From: Escherichia phage vB_EcoM_HZ_ZJUN4
DNA: 64,000 bases
Sequence record: PP216085
Reading direction: 5' to 3' (one strand)
A program made the position numbers and the translations under genes. Of this stretch, positions 2,128 to 51,742 are shown in pieces (the stretch's first letter is position 1; every line of letters begins with the position of its first letter). The notes under the pieces were generated by a model. It ran no database searches, was not told the DNA's origin, and saw nothing but the letters and a program-made list of their open reading frames with translations.

Positions 2128-2754
2128 ATGTATGAATACAAATTTGGCGTGAGAGTTGGTTCTAAAATAATCAACTGTCGCGCATTTACTCTTAAAGAAT
2201 ATCTAGAACTTATTACTGCTAAAAAGAACGGTTCAGTAGAAGAGATCGTTAAAAAGCTAATCAAAGACTGTACAAATGCAAAAGATTTAAACCGCCAAGA
2301 ATCAGAACTCTTGTTGATTCATTTATGGGCACATTCTCTTGGGGAAGTTAATCACGAAAACTCCTGGAAGTGCACCTGTGGAACTGAAATACCAACCCAT
2401 ATAAATCTATTACATACGCAAATAGATGCACCAGAAGACCTCTGGTATACACTGGGTGACATTAAAATTAAGTTCCATTACCCTAAAATTTTTGATGATA
2501 AAAATATAGCCCACATGATAGTATCATGTATAGAAACGATTCATGCTAACGGTGAAAGCATTCCAATTGAAGACTTAAATGAAAAAGAGTTGGAAGATTT
2601 ATATTCTATCATCACAGAGTCAGATATTGTAGCTATAAAAGATATGCTTTTAAAGCCTACTGTTTATTTGGCTGTTCCAATTAAATGTCCAGAGTGTGGA
2701 AAATCTCACGCTCACGTAATAAGAGGACTCAAAGAATTCTTTGAGCTATTGTAA
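2128..2754 (+). CDS. 26: baseplate hub subunit gp26
   Basis: 208 aa as in T4; Cys pairs CTCG...CPECG; followed by gene 25 with ATGA-type overlap. Confidence 0.8.
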
Positions 2755-3152
2755 TGGCAAATATTAATAAGCTTTATTCTGACATTGACCCAGAAATGAA
2801 AATGGATTGGAACAAAGATGTTTCTAGATCTCTTGGATTAAGGTCAATTAAAAATAGCCTTTTGGGAATTATTACAACCAGAAAAGGGTCAAGACCTTTT
2901 GACCCAGAATTTGGATGCGATTTATCTGATCAGCTTTTTGAGAATATGACTCCTCTTACTGCTGATACAGTTGAGCGTAACATCGAAAGCGCAGTAAGAA
3001 ACTACGAGCCACGTATTGATAAATTAGCAGTTAATGTAATACCAGTTTATGATGATTATACTTTGATAGTAGAAATACGCTTTTCGGTCATCGATAACCC
3101 TGATGATATTGAACAGATAAAACTACAACTGGCTTCCAGTAATAGAGTATAA
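2754..3152 (+). CDS. 25: baseplate wedge subunit gp25
   Basis: 132 aa; N-terminus [22 protein letters not shown] recognised as T4 gp25. Confidence 0.9.
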   Translation: MANINKLYSDIDPEMKMDWNKDVSRSLGLRSIKNSLLGIITTRKGSRPFDPEFGCDLSDQLFENMTPLTADTVERNIESAVRNYEPRIDKLAVNVIPVYDDYTLIVEIRFSVIDNPDDIEQIKLQLASSNRV

Positions 3153-3218
3153 TGCTTCACGTATAAACGTGGTATAATGAATCTAAGTCCATCCAATAAC
3201 AATTGAATAGAGAACAAT

Positions 3219-3632
3219 ATGAGATTAGAAGATCTTCAAGAAGAATTGAAGAAAGATGTGTTTATAGATTCGACTAAATTACAGTATGAAGCAGCTAATA
3301 ATGTGATGTTATATAGTAAATGGCTTAATAAGCATTCAAGTATTAAAAAGGAAATGCTTAGAATTGAAGCACAGAAAAAAGTTGCTCTTAAAGCTAAATT
3401 AGACTACTACTCGGGACGAGGAGATGGTGATGAATTTAGTATGGATCGTTATGAAAAATCAGAAATGAAGACAGTTCTATCAGCTGATAAGGATGTTTTA
3501 AAAGTTGATACTTCATTACAATATTGGGGAATTTTATTGGATTTCTGTAGCGGAGCTCTTGATGCTATTAAATCACGTGGATTTGCTATTAAGCATATTC
3601 AAGACATGCGAGCATTTGAGGCTGGAAAATAA
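3219..3632 (+). CDS. uvsY: UvsY recombination mediator
   Basis: 137 aa as in T4 UvsY; position between gene 25 and uvsW. Confidence 0.9.
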   Translation: MRLEDLQEELKKDVFIDSTKLQYEAANNVMLYSKWLNKHSSIKKEMLRIEAQKKVALKAKLDYYSGRGDGDEFSMDRYEKSEMKTVLSADKDVLKVDTSLQYWGILLDFCSGALDAIKSRGFAIKHIQDMRAFEAGK

Positions 3633-4363: not shown

Positions 4364-5875
4364 TTATAAATTAACTGTTTTCATTACGTAATTAAATTTT
4401 TCATCTGCGTAGCGCTGAATACGATCAATGCCGTGTTTTAAAAGATAGTTCAAATGAACATATTTCTTTTTCGTATTAGCAGATTTTGGCTTGACGCCAC
4501 AATCATCAATGAGGTCCCAGACCGTTGCGATTGTTTTAGAACCATGCTTACGTAATACACGACCTATTGTTTGCAATACAATAATTTTAGATTTAACACC
4601 GTGCGCTAAAACAACGTGATGCAGATTTTTAACTGAAATACCAGTAGAAAATACACCATAACTAGCTACTATAATTATTCCTTTACCGTTTTCAGCTAAG
4701 GTTTTCATTACATTGCGAGTTTCGGTATCAACTTCCCCCGATACGTAATAAACTTTATCGTATTCATTTTTAATTAAATCGAAAATAGCTTTACCATGTG
4801 ATACATGTTTAAACATGACAAAAGCGTTTTCATCTTTTTGTGCAAGTTTAATAGCTAATTTAGCGATCCATTTATTTCTTTTACTGAGCCCAGTAATAAT
4901 TTTTATTTCTTCTTGGTAAGTTTTTCCCTTTAATTTAGTAGTGAACTCATCAGGATAACGAAGAAAAATACTATTAATTTTTAGCTCAGTTACTTGTCCA
5001 TCTTCCATTAATTTAGAAGTCGTTACTGGCTTAAATATTTCACCAAACATTCCAACATACTGCATGATATTAGCTTTGCCATCACGTAATGAACCTGATA
5101 GACCAAATTTGAACATGCAGTTATTTAAACCTGATATGATAGATGAAATACTTTTTCCTGTGGCAAGATGGCATTCATCATTCATCATCATTCCAAACTG
5201 TGAGAACCATTCTTTTGGTTGTTTTACTACAGTTTGCCATGTACCAACAATTACCGGTGCATCATTTTTATATTTATCATCTTTTGATGCTCCACCACCG
5301 ATTTTCTTTATCATTGCATGACTGAATAAACGATAGTCAACAAAGTCATCAGCCATCTGAGTTGTCAGAGCAGTTGTTGGAACAATGATAAGAATTTTAC
5401 CTTCATAATTTTCCAAATAATAACGTGCAAGCAAAGCTTGAATTAAAGATTTACCTGCGGATGTTGGAAGATTAAGAATTCTACGACGATTAACTAATCC
5501 TTCGAACACTGCATCTTTTTGATACCAGTGTGGTTCAATTCTTTTATTTCCTGAATAGATTTCTAACTTAGAAAGCCATTCATCAAAATCTTTTCTTGAT
5601 AATTCTTCTTTTTCGTTAATTTGCGGGTCAATCCAAGCTTTATAGCCAAAGTTATCGCAGAACTTTTTAATTTGCCCAACTAAGCCGAATGGAAGAAGGC
5701 GATTATAATCTAAAAGACGGATTCGTCCATCCCAGTGACCATATTTGTATTTCGGATTAAAACGATACCCATCAGCTTCAAAGCTAAAGAAATCACGGAG
5801 TTCATGAAATGTACTTTCTTCACAATCAATTCTCACGTGACTAAAATCATAAAAATGTACTTTAATGTCAGTCAT
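4364..5875 (-). CDS. uvsW: UvsW DNA helicase (SF2)
   Basis: 503 aa; Walker A NLPTSAGKS and DECH box; N-terminus MTDIKVHFYDFSHVRIDCEEST recognised. Confidence 0.95.
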   Translation of the reverse strand: MTDIKVHFYDFSHVRIDCEESTFHELRDFFSFEADGYRFNPKYKYGHWDGRIRLLDYNRLLPFGLVGQIKKFCDNFGYKAWIDPQINEKEELSRKDFDEWLSKLEIYSGNKRIEPHWYQKDAVFEGLVNRRRILNLPTSAGKSLIQALLARYYLENYEGKILIIVPTTALTTQMADDFVDYRLFSHAMIKKIGGGASKDDKYKNDAPVIVGTWQTVVKQPKEWFSQFGMMMNDECHLATGKSISSIISGLNNCMFKFGLSGSLRDGKANIMQYVGMFGEIFKPVTTSKLMEDGQVTELKINSIFLRYPDEFTTKLKGKTYQEEIKIITGLSKRNKWIAKLAIKLAQKDENAFVMFKHVSHGKAIFDLIKNEYDKVYYVSGEVDTETRNVMKTLAENGKGIIIVASYGVFSTGISVKNLHHVVLAHGVKSKIIVLQTIGRVLRKHGSKTIATVWDLIDDCGVKPKSANTKKKYVHLNYLLKHGIDRIQRYADEKFNYVMKTVNL

Positions 5876-14552: not shown

Positions 14553-14790
14553 TATTCATCATCCTCGTCTTCGTCATCTTCGTCAGAGTCTTTGTCTTTT
14601 TTATCATCACCATCTTCGTCTTCGTCATCATCCTCGTCTTCAGGTTCTTCACCTTCGATTAAGAAATTACGAGCGATAGCGATTTTTTCTTCTTTAATTA
14701 AATCAATCGTTCTTGCAGCCATGGCTTCAGCAAATAATTTACGAGCGGCTACGAGGTCGTTTGATTTAATAGCTTCAATTAAACCTTCCA

Positions 14791-42319: not shown

Positions 42320-43016
<697 letters not shown>

Positions 43017-43028
43017 TTTCACAAAGTT

Positions 43029-43058
43029 GTTTACACGCTGATGAGGTAGTGATACTAT
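43029..43058 (+). promoter_or_regulatory. T4-type early (sigma70) promoter
   Basis: -35 GTTTAC at 43029-43034, 18-nt spacer, extended -10 GTGATACTAT. Confidence 0.6.
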
Positions 43059-43088
43059 TATCTCATCAAAATTAATTAGGAAAATAAA

Positions 43089-43376
43089 ATGAAAACATTT
43101 AAAGAATTTACTTCTACAACTACCCCGGTTTCTACCATTACCGAAGCTACTCTTACTTCTGAAGTTATTAAAGCAAATAAAGGACGAGAAGGTAAACCAA
43201 TGATTAGTCTGGTTGATGGCGAAGAAATCAAAGGTACTGTTTACCTAGGCGATGGGTGGTCTGCTAAAAAGGACGGTGCTACAATCGTTATCTCTCCTGC
43301 TGAAGAAACTGCGTTGTTTAAAGCTAAACACATTTCTGCGGCACATCTCAAAATTATTGCTAAAAATCTTTTGTAA
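43089..43376 (+). CDS. ipI: internal protein I (IPI) precursor
   Basis: 95 aa; long CTS MKTFKEFTSTTTPVSTITE followed by ATLTSEVIKANKGREGKP, recognised. Confidence 0.85.
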   Translation: MKTFKEFTSTTTPVSTITEATLTSEVIKANKGREGKPMISLVDGEEIKGTVYLGDGWSAKKDGATIVISPAEETALFKAKHISAAHLKIIAKNLL

Positions 43377-43394
43377 TAAATATTTCACAAAGTT

Positions 43395-43424
43395 GTTTAC
43401 ATAGGGTTTTAGTTGTGATACTAT
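43395..43424 (+). promoter_or_regulatory. T4-type early promoter
   Basis: GTTTAC, 18-nt spacer, GTGATACTAT. Confidence 0.6.
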
Positions 43425-43452
43425 TACCCTATCAACTACTGAGGAGAATAAA

Positions 43453-44404: not shown

Positions 44405-44477
44405 TGGGAATTAGCCAAGTTGGTAAGGCACTGGATTTTGATTCCAGGATGCAAAGGTTCGAGTCCTTTATTCCCAG
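44405..44477 (+). tRNA. tRNA-Gln (anticodon UUG)
   Basis: Cloverleaf folded by hand: acceptor TGGGAAT/ATTCCCA, anticodon loop TTTTGAT, T-loop GGTTCGAGTCC. Confidence 0.8.
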
Positions 44478-44478
44478 C

Positions 44479-44565
44479 GCGAGAATGGTCAAATTGGTAA
44501 AGGCACAGCACTTAAAATGCTGCGGAATGATTTCCTTGTGGGTTCGAGTCCCACTTCTCGCACCA
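44479..44565 (+). tRNA. tRNA-Leu (anticodon UAA), type II, CCA encoded
   Basis: Acceptor GCGAGAA/TTCTCGC, anticodon loop CTTAAAA, long variable arm, GGTTCGAGTCC. Confidence 0.8.
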
Positions 44566-44570
44566 AATTT

Positions 44571-44644
<74 letters not shown>

Positions 44645-44654
44645 ATTTAATTTA

Positions 44655-44728
44655 CTCCGTGTAGCTCAGTTTGGTAGAGCGCCTGATTTGGGATCAGGAG
44701 GTCCAAGGTTCAAATCCTTGTATGGAGA
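44655..44728 (+). tRNA. tRNA-Pro (anticodon UGG), no encoded CCA
   Basis: Anticodon stem CCTGA/TCAGG, loop TTTGGGA; GGTTCAAATCC T-arm. Confidence 0.8.
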
Positions 44729-44730
44729 CT

Positions 44731-44820
44731 GGAGGCGTGGCAGAGTGGTTTAATGCACCGGTCTTGAAAACCGGCAGTCGCTCCGGCGACTCATAGGTTC
44801 AAATCCTATCGCCTCCGCCA
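44731..44820 (+). tRNA. tRNA-Ser (anticodon UGA), type II
   Basis: Acceptor GGAGGCG/CGCCTCC, anticodon stem CCGGT/ACCGG, loop CTTGAAA, long variable arm. Confidence 0.8.
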
Positions 44821-44825
44821 GTTTT

Positions 44826-44901
44826 GCTGATTTAGCTCAGTAGGTAGAGCAACTCACTTGTAATGAGAAGGTCGGCGGTTCGATTCCGTCAATCAGCACC
44901 A
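44826..44901 (+). tRNA. tRNA-Thr (anticodon UGU)
   Basis: Acceptor GCTGATT/AATCAGC, anticodon loop CTTGTAA, GGTTCGATTCC T-arm. Confidence 0.8.
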
Positions 44902-44902
44902 A

Positions 44903-44977
44903 GGCCCTGTAGCTGGAAGGTTCAAGCAAGCGACTCATAATCGCCAGATGGTGGTTCAATTCCACCCAGGGCCACCA
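44903..44977 (+). tRNA. tRNA with CAU anticodon (Ile by synteny with T4, reading AUA after modification; Met not excluded)
   Basis: Acceptor GGCCCTG/CAGGGCC, anticodon loop CTCATAA, GGTTCAATTCC T-arm. Confidence 0.7.
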
Positions 44978-44990
44978 AATTAAGAATTAA

Positions 44991-45077
44991 GGGGAGTTAT
45001 CCCGTAGAGGTAGCGGTGTGGACTGTAAATCCATTGTCATTGCGACTCGGGTGGTTCGACTCCATCACTCCCCACCA
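44991..45077 (+). tRNA. tRNA-Tyr-like (anticodon GUA), type II
   Basis: Acceptor GGGGAGT/ACTCCCC, anticodon stem GTGGA/TCCAT, loop CTGTAAA, long variable arm, T-arm GGTGG-TTCGACT-CCATC; D-arm pairing imperfect. Confidence 0.6.
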
Positions 45078-45081
45078 ATTT

Positions 45082-45156
45082 GGATGTGTAGCTCAATGGC
45101 AGAGCGATCGCCTGTTAAGCGATTGGTTATAGGTTCGAATCCTATCACGTCCGCCA
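45082..45156 (+). tRNA. tRNA-Asn (anticodon GUU)
   Basis: Acceptor GGATGTG/CACGTCC, D-stem GCTC/GAGC, anticodon stem ATCGC/GCGAT, loop CTGTTAA, GGTTCGAATCC T-arm. Confidence 0.7.
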
Positions 45157-45160
45157 AATC

Positions 45161-45236
45161 CGAGGCATAGCTCAGAAGGAAGAGCAAGGACCTTCTAAGT
45201 CCTAGGTCGTAGGTTCGATCCCTACTGCCTCGACCA
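45161..45236 (+). tRNA. tRNA-Arg (anticodon UCU)
   Basis: Acceptor CGAGGCA/TGCCTCG, D-stem GCTC/GAGC, anticodon stem AGGAC/GTCCT, loop CTTCTAA, GGTTCGATCCC T-arm. Confidence 0.8.
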
Positions 45237-45252: not shown

Positions 45253-45603
45253 ATGAAAGGTAATGTTTATTTAGTAGTTCATGATTTAACATTCTATTTT
45301 AATCACAATGACACTGTTATTTCTGAACGTGTAATTAATTTACTTTATCAGCATGCAGATTATGTTTATGTCGAAAACGAATACGGTCATTGGCAATTTC
45401 TCAAAAATCGTTCATTTGGTTTAGATGGTTACGAATACTTTGAACGTAAAGACCTTTTAGATAAAATTCCGTTATCTACACAATATCAAAATCATAAGTC
45501 TTTATATAAATGCCGTCCAATTCGAAATGCTGAATCTGCGTATGAAGTAATTGATTTATGGCGTAAACGTCGTGGACAGGTTGATGCTTTAAAAGAATAC
45601 TAA
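45253..45603 (+). CDS. hypothetical protein
   Basis: 116-aa ORF starting 17 nt after tRNA-Arg, with a GAGG RBS. Confidence 0.5.
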   Translation: MKGNVYLVVHDLTFYFNHNDTVISERVINLLYQHADYVYVENEYGHWQFLKNRSFGLDGYEYFERKDLLDKIPLSTQYQNHKSLYKCRPIRNAESAYEVIDLWRKRRGQVDALKEY

Positions 45604-45771
45604 GAAACCGGGTCGCTACCGGTAAGTCGTCGGACTGATGTTCCCTGGGTAAGGAATTGTGTTAATAAATCTTTATGATTTGTTGATGCCCTCTTACATC
45701 ACAGCAGAAACGGCGCACCGAATTATCGATTCGAGGAAATATCTTTGCCGTAAGCCGAGTAGCGTTTTTGA

Positions 45772-45863
45772 CGGAACGTTCGGATATGGTCGAGATATGG
45801 CCTTTTAAAAATATTAAGTAGCGTCAACTGCTTAATAACCGGGTTCGAATCCCGGCGTTTCGT
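45772..45863 (+). ncRNA. tRNA-like element (acceptor stem plus T-arm with divergent core); possible stable RNA or degenerate tRNA
   Basis: 7-bp acceptor-like helix CGGAACG/CGTTTCG flanking a T-arm CCGGG-TTCGAAT-CCCGG; ORF-free, GC-rich. Confidence 0.3.
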
Positions 45864-45914
45864 ACAAACACTTGCCTTAGCAGGTGGAACCCCGACAAGG
45901 TTGCCGCAAGGCTT

Positions 45915-45943
45915 AGCCCCGACCGAAAGGTTGGGGCTTTTTA
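45915..45943 (+). terminator. intrinsic terminator (repeat copy 1)
   Basis: 10-bp stem AGCCCCGACC/GGTTGGGGCT with GAAA loop, then TTTTT. Confidence 0.75.
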
Positions 45944-45944
45944 G

Positions 45945-45952
45945 TATAAATA
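45945..45952 (+). promoter_or_regulatory. late promoter box TATAAATA
   Basis: Exact TATAAATA 40 nt upstream of the 45992 ATG. Confidence 0.45.
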
Positions 45953-45991
45953 TAGTAGTGTATTAAATCACGAATTAAAACAGGAAATAAG

Positions 45992-46465
45992 ATGAAATCA
46001 TATGCTCAATTTTTAAATGAAGTGGTGTTAAATGAAGCATCCGCTTCAGATGTTCGCGCTGTAGCAACTGCTGCTATTAAAGCTGGTAAATATTCTTATA
46101 AAGATGCTTCTGACGAATCCCGGTACAAGTTCTACGACGATATGAGAGCTGAAGGCTTTGTGGGTAACTATGTTACCACCGCCTGGAAAAGTCTGGTTGC
46201 TACTGGTGCGGCTTTCGAAAAACCTTCCGGTAAACCTGCTCCTAAAGCAGATCCTAAAGCTGCACAAGAAAAAAATATTGTTAAAGGAATTATCGCTAAA
46301 TATGAAGCTATACTTAAAGAGCTTTTAGTAATTAAAACCGAAGGCCAAAAATTAGCCCGTGCCTATAGTTTCAAAGATAATCCACATGCTCATGACCTAG
46401 AGTATGTTGAAGACATCCAAAAAATTATTAAAGACCGCATTTGGTCTGCTAAACAAATCAAATAA
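45992..46465 (+). CDS. candidate internal (capsid-targeted) protein, unrecognised family
   Basis: 157 aa; N-terminus MKSYAQFLNE matches the 10-residue CTS of T4 internal proteins; flanked by identical terminators. Confidence 0.6.
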   Translation: MKSYAQFLNEVVLNEASASDVRAVATAAIKAGKYSYKDASDESRYKFYDDMRAEGFVGNYVTTAWKSLVATGAAFEKPSGKPAPKADPKAAQEKNIVKGIIAKYEAILKELLVIKTEGQKLARAYSFKDNPHAHDLEYVEDIQKIIKDRIWSAKQIK

Positions 46466-46472
46466 CATTCTT

Positions 46473-46501
46473 AGCCCCGACCGAAAGGTTGGGGCTTTTT
46501 A
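46473..46501 (+). terminator. intrinsic terminator (repeat copy 2)
   Basis: Same hairpin as 45915-45943, then TTTTT. Confidence 0.75.
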
Positions 46502-46590
46502 GTTTGAATCGCATAGAGAATGCTGTTACGGATAATAACAAAGTAATAAATAATTAATAACTGACCGATAAATTATTTCAAGGATTTTAA

Positions 46591-47154
46591 ATGAAAACCT
46601 ATGCCGAATTTTTAACCGAAGCAGCAAAATTACCATCTGAAGCAGAACTTACTAAAGTATTCTTCCAATTGGACCCAAAAGACCGTGGCGATTTTCTTAA
46701 GTGGAAAGCTAAAGCTATTGAAATGTATAACATTGATAATAGTTCTTTTACGATGAGTCAAGAAAATAAATTCAATAAAGCATTTTTCAAAATTTCTAAG
46801 AAACTGGCATCTGGCGCTCAGGTTCCTAAATCTGCCTTAGCTACTCCTGAACGTGCGCCTGTTAAAATTTCTAAGAATATGTTCGACACTAAAAAATACG
46901 TTAATGCTTTGAATAAAGCTCTTGATGCATTGGATGATGCAAAGAAGGCAGCCCGTGATCTTCAAGACGTGTACATCGATTTTGATCGTAAAACTAAAGG
47001 TTCTATTTCAAATAGCGAACGCAATAGTGTAAGCGTTTATTCTGATAGCCTTGACGTTCTTGGCGATGCGTATACTGAAATTAAAAATCGTATTAACACC
47101 GCATCTAAACTAAAAGCTGCCGCAGAAGCTATAATAGCTAAACTAGGTAAATAA
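46591..47154 (+). CDS. candidate internal (capsid-targeted) protein, unrecognised family
   Basis: 187 aa; N-terminus MKTYAEFLTE matches the T4 CTS; Lys/Ala-rich body. Confidence 0.6.
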   Translation: MKTYAEFLTEAAKLPSEAELTKVFFQLDPKDRGDFLKWKAKAIEMYNIDNSSFTMSQENKFNKAFFKISKKLASGAQVPKSALATPERAPVKISKNMFDTKKYVNALNKALDALDDAKKAARDLQDVYIDFDRKTKGSISNSERNSVSVYSDSLDVLGDAYTEIKNRINTASKLKAAAEAIIAKLGK

Positions 47155-47163
47155 TTTTAAACC

Positions 47164-47188
47164 CCCTATCTAAATGATAGGGCTTTTT
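47164..47188 (+). terminator. intrinsic terminator
   Basis: CCCTATC-TAAAT-GATAGGG then CTTTTT. Confidence 0.6.
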
Positions 47189-47322
47189 GGTATCTAGGCC
47201 TTTCTGGACCTCTCTAAGAATCATTTAGTTTCTACCCTTTATAATATATTATCCTATCCTTTAATTGCCCCTCCCTGTCCTAGAATTCCCTAAAACTTTT
47301 TAAAAAATTTTTTCACAAAACT

Positions 47323-47352
47323 GTTTACATCCCCGTTCTTCCATGGTACTAT
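47323..47352 (+). promoter_or_regulatory. T4-type early promoter
   Basis: GTTTAC, 18-nt spacer, GGTACTATACAACTATCAAC. Confidence 0.6.
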
Positions 47353-47395
47353 ACAACTATCAACTGCTGATACAGAAAACAACTTGGAGAATGAA

Positions 47396-47659
47396 ATGGA
47401 TAATTACGGCGAACTGTTCAACTTCTTTATGAAATGCGTTTCAGAAGATTTCGGTCGTACAGTGAATGATATTAAAGTCATCGGTCCTGACCATCCGATG
47501 TTTGAAACTTACGCAGTAATGGGTAATGAAGACGGTCAGTGGTATACTGTAAAAGTTGTGATTAATATGTTCACTGCTGAAGGTTATGTTAAACTGTCTT
47601 CTAAAGTTTACCACGATAACGATGAAATCGCAGAAGAATATTTCAATAATATGAAATAA
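47396..47659 (+). CDS. hypothetical protein
   Basis: Track ORF begins at TTG 47384; first ATG at 47396 with GGAGA RBS; 87 aa. Confidence 0.5.
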   Translation: MDNYGELFNFFMKCVSEDFGRTVNDIKVIGPDHPMFETYAVMGNEDGQWYTVKVVINMFTAEGYVKLSSKVYHDNDEIAEEYFNNMK

Positions 47660-50934: not shown

Positions 50935-51252
50935 ATGAAAACGTTTAAAGAATTTATTGCAGAATCTGCCCAAGGACAACGTGTAGAAGGCGGTTATATC
51001 TGGATTGAACAAGTTGAGCCGCCAAGTCGCACTTCTACAGGTAAATGGAAAATCACTGTTGATGGTCCTGGTGGTAAACGTAGGACTCTTAAAGAAATTA
51101 ACGGGTACTATGAAGAAGCTCTTTCTGACGCGGGTACTTATATGATGCAAATCATGATTAAAAACCCAGAAAATCGTTTTGCGGCTAGAGTTTTCCGCCG
51201 TATTGGAAATAAGCTTTATGATGCATATTCTAAAAACTTCCCTAAAGAATAA
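50935..51252 (+). CDS. internal protein with CTS (IPII/IPIII-type)
   Basis: 105 aa; N-terminus MKTFKEFIAE; locus next to e as in T4. Confidence 0.7.
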   Translation: MKTFKEFIAESAQGQRVEGGYIWIEQVEPPSRTSTGKWKITVDGPGGKRRTLKEINGYYEEALSDAGTYMMQIMIKNPENRFAARVFRRIGNKLYDAYSKNFPKE

Positions 51253-51268
51253 AAATTAAAGGATACAC

Positions 51269-51742
51269 ATGAAAACATATCAAGAATTTATTACTGAAGC
51301 AGCTATTAATTCTCAAATTATTGCTGAATCTTTTACTGATCTTTTGAAATTTAAAAAAGGACAGAAAATCACTGCTGTATTGGATGATGGTACAGAAGTT
51401 GAGATGGATGTACAGGGATATAATTATGCAGTAGATGGAAAACTGTATAATAAATCTCATGCTAAATTTGATTCATTTGACGACTTTGTTAATACAGTTG
51501 AAGATGAAAAAACTCGTCGATCCATTGCAACTGGTGATGCTAAGGTTCTTATGGCACATGGTCATGAACGCATTCGCGCTAAACAGAATAAAATGGGTGA
51601 AGATAATTTTGCATTAGTTGGTTATCAATCTGGTAAGCAAACTTATGGCTATCAGCGTACTGCTACCATGTATAATAAAAATGGTAAAATCGCTTTCGTG
51701 AATAGTAAAGGTTCTATTCAGTACGTTAAATCGTTCAAATAA
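51269..51742 (+). CDS. internal protein with CTS (IPII/IPIII-type)
   Basis: 157 aa; N-terminus MKTYQEFITE; locus next to e as in T4. Confidence 0.7.
   Translation: MKTYQEFITEAAINSQIIAESFTDLLKFKKGQKITAVLDDGTEVEMDVQGYNYAVDGKLYNKSHAKFDSFDDFVNTVEDEKTRRSIATGDAKVLMAHGHERIRAKQNKMGEDNFALVGYQSGKQTYGYQRTATMYNKNGKIAFVNSKGSIQYVKSFK

Follow-up and report, generated by a model that had tools for sequence, protein, structure and literature searches.

The window analyzed here is a 64-kb stretch (64,000 nucleotides) of Escherichia phage vB_EcoM_HZ_ZJUN4 (sequence record PP216085), a Tequatrovirus (T4-like phage) whose closest match across the locus under study is phage Nami (97.5% identity). All window coordinates are given on its + strand, which is equivalent to the minus strand in the GenBank entry for T4. 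Between the stable RNA gene rnaC and the gene e.8, a 34-bp sequence, CTTAGCCCCGACCGAAAGGTTGGGGCTTTTTAGT, occurs exactly twice, at 45912–45945 (copy 1) and 46470–46503 (copy 2), both times on the + strand. The two copies enclose a single open reading frame (ORF) of 157 amino acids (aa) whose product begins with a capsid-targeting sequence (CTS).

The rnaC homolog (species 1 stable RNA; 45726–45864), the last gene of the tRNA/stable RNA transcription unit, is preceded by the rnaD homolog (species 2 stable RNA; 45610–45719). Both positions were carried over by hand from the T4 annotation (locus L001, 2623–2761 and 2498–2616, respectively), and the rnaD–rnaC segment is 96% identical between the window and T4. 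Copy 1 begins 48 nucleotides (nt) downstream of the end of rnaC. A T4-type late promoter box, TATAAATA (45945–45952), overlaps the final base of copy 1 and lies 39 nt upstream of the ATG of the 157-aa ORF (45992–46465), hereafter cargo 1, which has the CTS-type N-terminus MKSYAQFLNE. Copy 2 begins 4 nt past the stop codon of cargo 1 and is followed by cargo 2, a 187-aa ORF (46591–47154) with the CTS-type N-terminus MKTYAEFLTE. The match to TATAAATA is perfect upstream of cargo 1 and only 7/8 upstream of cargo 2, where the motif AATAAATA at 46545–46552 is a candidate late promoter. The right border of the cargo 2 cassette is terminator 3 (47164–47200; stem 47164–47182, CCCTATCTAAATGATAGGG), whose stem is unlike that of copies 1 and 2. 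Beyond it lie an early promoter found by promoter scan (TTTACA-17-TACTAT, 47324–47352), the homologous site of which is annotated as a T4 early promoter in phage SA20RB, and the e.8 homolog (47396–47659; 96% nt identity to T4), assigned from the T4 annotation, which is the conserved right neighbor of a variable slot. The genes around the repeat all lie on the + strand. An earlier note on this DNA had described the repeat as bracketing a CTS gene and its late promoter box, and both elements do lie between the copies. From its sequence, the unit can be read as a cassette in which a terminator, a late promoter, and a leader precede a CTS-tagged gene whose product is probably an injected head protein.

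The Repeat as a Predicted Intrinsic Terminator

The copies start 558 bp apart in direct orientation. Identity begins abruptly at CTTAG, preceded by AAGG in copy 1 and CATT in copy 2, and ends as abruptly at TAGT, followed by ATAAAT in copy 1 and TTGAAT in copy 2. A comparison of the window with itself confirmed the 34-bp identity that the earlier note had reported and showed that no other exact local direct repeat in the 64 kb is as long. No further copies of CTTAGCCCCGACCGAAAGGTTGGGGCTTTTTAGT with up to three mismatches were found in the window, and 100 dinucleotide-preserving shuffles yielded no match, ruling out a chance origin. An assembly artefact is ruled out as well, as more than 100 genomes sequenced independently show the same structure.

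Both copies consist of a GC-rich hairpin followed by a T-run and were scored as terminator-like by scan, in agreement with the terminator proposed in the earlier note. Each stem (45915–45938 in copy 1, 46473–46496 in copy 2) has 10 pairs, seven of them G-C, closed by a GAAA loop and followed by a TTTTT tail, with a predicted folding energy of −20.3 kcal/mol (z = −5.2). On the reverse strand, no T-run follows the hairpin. T4 has a single rnaC terminator, of which copy 1 is the orthologue, and the SA20RB record annotates the same site as a rho-independent terminator, the depositors' terminator annotations resting on predictions only. An Rfam search at E up to 1 returned no family matching rnaC, rnaD, or the terminator. 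By sequence and position, each copy qualifies as a putative intrinsic terminator. Copy 1 lies directly 3' of rnaD and rnaC and is therefore taken as the terminator of the tRNA/stable RNA operon. Around copy 2, neither the sequence nor the promoter scans revealed a promoter within about 40 nt. Terminator 3 and the two copies have the 3' tail GGGCTTTTTGGTAT in common and differ in their stems. The tail and downstream flank of terminator 3 (GGGCTTTTTGGTATCTAGGCC) match those of the T4 rnaC terminator.

Cassette States Among Related Phages

To compare the locus among relatives, it was read base by base in about twenty phages, and junction-specific BLAST queries were run against the INPHARED collection (50,697 phage records) as a census, in which all record counts are approximate and include GenBank/RefSeq duplicates. 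IMG/VR was too sparse for a census, providing 10 loci from a scan for e.8 relatives and five stretches from the exact terminator pattern, and its loci were used for the JS98-type configurations described below. At 90% identity or more, the 34-mer occurs in 423 phage records at 518 places, which gives roughly 95 records with two copies. Among the matches listed it never exceeds two per record, and it is thus common yet confined to this locus. The rnaC 3' anchor AACCGGGTTCGAATCCCGGCGTTTCGTAC is present in every Tequatrovirus and Mosigvirus locus examined.

All four combinations of the 157-aa and 187-aa genes occur in public phage genomes. In the empty state, seen in T4, T6, PST, and ACG-C40 (T4, PST, and ACG-C40 were read at the locus), rnaC is followed by one terminator copy, the flank GGTATCTAGGCC, and then e.8, with no cargo gene; the contiguous empty junction is found in 81 records. 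The 157-only state (SA20RB, slur08, RB32, and loci L004 and L005, two IMG/VR contigs among them) consists of the terminator with TATAAATA, the gene, and a second terminator that runs directly into the T4-type flank GGTATCTAGGCC, and accounts for most of the remaining records. In the 187-only state, read in ESh24 and CT01, rnaC is followed by one terminator, a leader beginning AGTTTGAATC, the 187-aa gene, and terminator 3. BLAST can merge two terminator copies, so single-piece rows of this class were counted by hand (37 of 55), giving 37 records with the junction in a single piece, RB69, RB14, and Shfl2 included. Both genes, arranged as in the window, are present in Nami, three IMG/VR contigs, and the Mosigvirus ChristianSchoenbein, and the junction between the two cassettes is found in about 125 records, a count that includes joined rows that are also double. 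The repeat is thus not limited to this genome and the locus is highly variable, contrary to what the earlier note had named as grounds for abandoning its proposal.

Wherever the junctions were read at base level, they lie inside the terminator. The late promoter box TATAAATA after copy 1 is kept in all filled loci and is missing from the empty ones; the SA20RB record annotates this box as a T4 late promoter. The 187-only structure, with one terminator copy followed by the leader of the 187-aa gene, is the product expected of an exchange between copy 1 and copy 2.

Other genes are found behind the same element. In the Mosigvirus pEK20, copy 1 with TATAAATA is followed by a different CTS ORF of 208 aa. 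Contigs of the JS98 type carry a homologous terminator variant, GGCCCTTCCGAAAGGTTGGGCC, together with TATAAATA and present twice, in the order terminator with TATAAATA, a 184-aa membrane-type ORF lacking a CTS, terminator with TATAAATA, and a 205-aa CTS ORF. In loci L010 and L012, a 157-family ORF and then the 184-aa ORF are bracketed by the JS98-type variant, so that the order of cassettes is permuted. One contig's 157-family gene and another's 205-aa gene have in common a near-identical left adaptor of about 120 nt, which comprises the terminator, TATAAATA, the leader, and the first 45 coding nt with the CTS, after which similarity ends abruptly. This adaptor, common to different cargos, makes the conserved flank longer than the terminator.

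The 184-aa membrane-type ORF (MKLLKYLSW...; 3636–4190 in L009 and L011, 4326–4880 in L010) fills slot 1 in phages of the JS98 type, whereas other phages have it in slot 2. At 4771–5000 of L008, it is cut to a deletion remnant of about 90 nt that retains the start and the last codons. In the JS98-type contigs L008–L011, rnaD appears to join directly to the sequence that follows rnaC in T4 (GGCGCACCGAACACTTGCCTAGCAGG), and rnaC seems, from these sequences, to be missing.

Signs of Repeated Exchange

The flanks of the repeat tell a different history from the cassettes that they enclose. The rnaD–rnaC flank of the window differs by 0.6% from that of ESh24, which carries the 187-aa gene only, and by 0.6% from that of RB32, which carries the 157-aa gene only. 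A rare left haplotype, about 9% from the other loci, is held in common by CT01 (187 only) and locus L006 (both genes), which are 0.7% apart and differ in the leaders to the right of the terminator. Flank haplotype is no guide to cassette state.

A comparison between the window and ChristianSchoenbein separates the two cargo genes. Nucleotide identity is 74% for the 157-aa gene, 74% for the 116-aa ORF upstream of rnaD (ORF116), and 80% for e.6, values that match the divergence of the genomes. Identity rises to 95% for the 187-aa gene and 93% for e.8, against about 74–84% for neighbors, suggesting that the 187-aa gene together with e.8 spread laterally more recently. Since divergence of the 157-aa gene tracks that of the genomes, we infer that this gene is old at the site, and on that basis the empty and 187-only states are probably deletions. 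The mosaic patch extends over 46591–47659 of the window (2501–3506 in locus L019), with its left edge at terminator copy 2. The Mosigviruses pEK20 and a20 are without both the 187-aa gene and e.8.

Within a genome, the two copies also carry the same lineage-specific variants, CCTTCC with GGCAT in a20 and GGCCCTTCC...GGGCC in JS98-type loci. These shared variants suggest conversion between copies in a genome.

Cargo Genes

CTS-type ORFs were found by a regular-expression scan of the window's ORFs. The CTS ends in an (L/I)-x-E site for the prohead protease, in keeping with the specificity of T4 gp21. Both cargo ORFs conform to the MKTYQEFIAE type ending in (L/I)-x-E, and their N-termini, MKSYAQFLNE and MKTYAEFLTE, resemble the MKTFKEFIAE and MKTYQEFITE of ORFs at the ipII/ipIII position. 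These are two more CTS-type ORFs just past the lysozyme gene, at 50935–51252 (105 aa, MKTFKEFIAE) and 51269–51742 (157 aa, MKTYQEFITE), which sit where ipII and ipIII lie in T4.

The 157-, 187-, and 208-aa ORFs are all full-length matches to PHROG 2280, a family of unknown function (E = 1.7e-54 for the 157-aa ORF). In a BLASTP comparison of the 157-aa and 187-aa proteins, similarity is confined to the 10-residue CTS. Pfam and PDB sequence searches gave no credible match for either cargo protein; a match to cytochrome b562 was below threshold, and matches to ETV6 fusions were attributed to chance. Neither cargo ORF matches Pfam IPI_T4 or PHROG 4363, whereas the ipI homolog of the window matches both. 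Internal proteins (IPs) are known to share only the CTS, so this absence is not decisive against the cargos being IPs. The product of cargo 1 is a probable injected head protein, and by analogy with Ip1–Ip3 the cargo proteins are likely injected with an anti-defence role. We infer that they are packaged anti-defence proteins.

The two cargos have evolved at very different tempos. Homologs of the 157-aa protein occur in 511 phage records, mostly at 80–90% aa identity, and the 187-aa protein occurs in 164, of which 163 are at least 95% identical, Mosigvirus included. The motif AATAAATA is kept in the leader of the 187-aa gene in most of the 187-bearing loci examined. The window's own version of the 157-aa protein is unusual, with an identity of at least 95% in only 10 of the 511 records.

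Proposed Mechanism and Alternatives

We consider it likely that the 34-bp repeat is the intrinsic terminator of the tRNA/rnaD/rnaC unit, doubled so that it forms both borders of a one-gene cassette, and that it serves as a recombination substrate. Copy 1 would end the stable RNA transcript, and copy 2 would end the late transcript of the 157-aa gene and insulate the next cassette. Two identical copies in direct orientation, whose starts lie 558 bp apart in a phage that recombines very actively, would for that reason be expected to act as a recombination substrate. An exchange between copy 1 and copy 2 within one genome would remove the cassette and keep one copy, the reciprocal product possibly being a mini-circle. 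Cassettes would be added or swapped if two co-infecting genomes recombined, or if a circle re-integrated at a resident terminator. Two published results make such a mechanism plausible. During laboratory evolution of T4, deletions and amplifications arose through microhomologies of 6–10 bp, loss of ipIII included (PMC9391042), and in RB49 and phi1, excision between flanking stem-loop/promoter cassettes was demonstrated experimentally, with circular products (PMC2839356).

The earlier note had read the direct repeats as the footprint of cassette exchange by homologous recombination between conserved flanks. The variable states with junctions in the terminator support that reading, with the qualification that the common flank of different cargos, at about 120 nt, is longer than the terminator.

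Several observations weigh against recombination at the repeat as the full account. The comparative data locate junctions, not the recombination reaction itself, and these junctions fit equally well with a small number of ancient events whose products were afterwards distributed by ordinary crossing-over in the extended flanking sequence. The repeat is specific to this locus, with at most two copies per record among the matches listed, and is not dispersed in the manner of the promoter-early stem-loops (PeSLs) of T4-type phages. On its right side, the 187-aa cassette is bordered by a different hairpin, which has only GGGCTTTTT(G/A)GT, about 14 nt, in common with copy 2. The 34-bp repeat therefore cannot account for the 187-aa cassette, for which a shorter homology or another route is needed. 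The terminator after the 205/208-aa gene in JS98 and pEK20 is unrelated. Finally, similar stems could be maintained by nothing more than selection on termination.

This last point leads to a broader alternative, in which both copies are working terminators kept alike by selection and cassette variation comes from crossing-over within the extended conserved sequences to the left (tRNA/rnaC) and to the right (e.8/e.6), with the repeat uninvolved. Both copies stand where a terminator is needed, the repeat is limited to this locus, and the thorough reshuffling of flank haplotypes shows that crossing-over in the flanks is frequent. Selection on termination is harder to reconcile with an identity that extends to non-structural positions (the CTTA before the stem and the AGT after the T-run), particularly when terminator 3 works equally well with a quite different stem. 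Moreover, crossing-over in the flanks between an empty and a double locus cannot yield a 187-only or a 157-only locus; a junction within about 34 bp is needed. Both states exist, each with exactly one intact copy at the junction, and the variants that both copies of a genome have in common also argue against selection alone. We regard this alternative as improbable. Instead, the distribution of junctions suggests that recombination at the repeat, and not elsewhere, made the cassette states.

Two other origins were weighed. The repeat could be the relic of a tandem duplication of the whole unit (terminator, promoter, and IP gene), the 157-aa and 187-aa genes being diverged paralogs, as might be read from the full-length matches of the 157-, 187-, and 208-aa ORFs to one PHROG family and from the 76% DNA identity of their ribosome-binding-site and CTS regions. 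However, outside the CTS the two proteins show no BLASTP overlap, and an age sufficient to erase protein similarity is incompatible with 34 of 34 identical bases, unpaired ones included, unless conversion came later. The leaders after copies 1 and 2 are unrelated, the terminator past the 187-aa gene is a different one, and the pattern of recent lateral spread is seen in the 187-aa gene and not in the 157-aa gene. Such a duplication could account for the origin of the repeat but leaves today's polymorphism unexplained, and we consider it very unlikely as the explanation of the locus. The idea that a mobile element (a transposon or a homing endonuclease cassette) left the repeat as a target-site duplication or homing footprint has the least to recommend it. 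Homing endonuclease genes do occur nearby in relatives, namely segB in T4, SA20RB, RB32, and PST, an HNH gene in ACG-C40, and another in ESh24, and such neighbors could stimulate local recombination. The window's tRNA cluster, in contrast, has no endonuclease gene, and between the copies only the 157-aa CTS protein is encoded, not a transposase, integrase, or endonuclease. The cassette is also without terminal inverted repeats, and 34 bp far exceeds typical target duplications. A transposon or homing origin is effectively refuted by the gene content of the cassette, and we give it almost no credence.

Relationship to Known Systems

The element is best called a late-promoter, single-locus analogue of the PeSLs, which are mobile regulatory cassettes of T4-type phages (PMC2839356, Arbiol et al. 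2010; PMC4122927, Comeau et al. 2014). In both, a composite of stem-loop terminator and promoter directly flanks small non-essential ORFs. Here too, the flanked ORFs are inserted, deleted, or replaced in relatives, and one composite is left at the empty site. Recombination between flanking copies has been proposed for both, and circular excision products were seen for the PeSLs of RB49 and phi1. The promoter of a PeSL is sigma-70-like and early, and the 2014 paper adds only a middle-promoter version; the promoter here, TATAAATA, is late. Furthermore, PeSLs are many and dispersed through hyperplastic regions, unlike the present element with its two copies at most at a single locus, and the shared adaptor here reaches into the coding sequence, through the CTS. 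The PST/T4 pair of the 2014 study is empty at this site. Within the window, the one PeSL-like arrangement is that of terminator 3 and the e.8 early promoter, which are about 140 nt apart.

The IP loci of T-even phages are likewise polymorphic (Repoila et al. 1994, as cited in PMC2839356, PMC4122927, PMC3012670, and PMC12373910). As these papers relate, such loci contain small genes that share only the N-terminal CTS and differ between relatives in how many there are, which they are, and how they are ordered; beside them are conserved regulatory sequences, and shuffling has been proposed as a route to host-range change. The literature examined here names two loci, ipI and ipII/ipIII, and the slot between rnaC and e.8 is a third site, one that is empty in T4. 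The regulatory elements also differ, being early promoters with weak AT-rich stem-loops at the IP loci and a strong GC-rich terminator with a late promoter here.

Deletions between short repeats in T4 (PMC9391042, Srikant et al. 2022) offer a further parallel, in which direct repeats around non-essential genes serve as deletion end points and one copy is left. Those repeats are fortuitous and 6–10 bp long, whereas the present one is a 34-bp functional element that recurs in hundreds of genomes. Deletions associated with GGGC have also been described (Mosig 1998, as cited in PMC2839356).

The bare observation is already public. The RB32 record (NC_008515 / DQ904452) contains RB32ORF133c, the orthologue of the 157-aa ORF at the same position, with the note that it is "flanked by 34 bp imperfect direct repeat." That annotation carries no interpretation and concerns an imperfect repeat around one cassette, in contrast to the perfect repeat of the window, where a second cassette follows. 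No mention of RB32ORF133c was found in the literature searched. Nor is the interpretation new, as shuffling through regulatory cassettes, both PeSLs and IP loci, was described by Krisch's group.

The injected internal proteins of T-even phages are host-range determinants, with Ip1, Ip2, and Ip3 each inhibiting a different one of the GmrSD restriction enzymes (PMC12373910). For the gain, loss, and transfer of such genes, this locus offers a very clean natural example, with four cassette combinations and junctions in a 34-bp functional element, and it makes recombination at regulatory cassettes easily testable by simple polymerase chain reaction or sequencing. It also presents PHROG 2280, an uncharacterized family found in more than 500 sequenced phages, as a candidate family of anti-defence cargo. 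The current picture of T4-type genome evolution is unchanged, a late-promoter, single-locus example being added to it. We can also speculate further, while thinking the whole of the following doubtful. T-even phages might use the gap between rnaC and e.8 as a third landing pad dedicated to injected anti-defence proteins, with a composite adaptor (strong terminator, late promoter, leader, and CTS codons) that combines the roles of expression signal, packaging signal, and recombination site. In that case, phages of different genera would capture cassettes, excise them (perhaps as mini-circles), and pass them on to one another in the manner of an integron without an integrase, and the PHROG 2280 cargos could be new inhibitors of type IV restriction enzymes (GmrSD-type) or of similar first-line defences.

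Neighboring Features of the Window

Upstream of the repeat, the order on the + strand is the ipI homolog (43089–43376), which matches the Pfam and PHROG families named above, followed by trna.4, trna.3, trna.2, ten tRNA genes, ORF116, rnaD, and rnaC. The tRNA genes form one unbroken cluster on the + strand (44405–45236; Gln, Leu, Gly, Pro, Ser, Thr, Met/Ile-CAT, Tyr, Asn, and Arg), compared with eight in T4, where segB is inserted, and both tRNA content and endonuclease insertions differ among all relatives examined. ORF116 (45253–45603, + strand), between tRNA-Arg and rnaD, belongs to PHROG 3355, also of unknown function. It is present in Nami, ACG-C40, slur08, ESh24, and Mosigvirus, and absent in T4, SA20RB, RB32, and PST, which instead have segB among the tRNA genes. 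ORF116 is thus another presence/absence polymorphism, a few hundred bases upstream of the repeat.

Short ORFs annotated as "hypothetical protein" overlie rnaD and rnaC (45659–45808 in the window, 2070–2371 in L003, 2926–3213 in L016, and 1920–2247 in L018), and in public records these are probably spurious calls. The ipI homolog is flanked by a direct repeat of the T4-type early promoter motif ATTTCACAAAGTTGTTTACA...TGATACTAT (43016–43069 and 43382–43435; 78% over 54 nt). A third copy of this motif lies upstream of e.8 (47292–47370), and the arrangement as a whole resembles the promoter repeats around IP genes and PeSLs. Elsewhere in the window, a short imperfect tandem array of TCATC/TCGTC-type units at 14556–14653 probably codes for an acidic Asp/Glu-rich stretch on the opposite strand.

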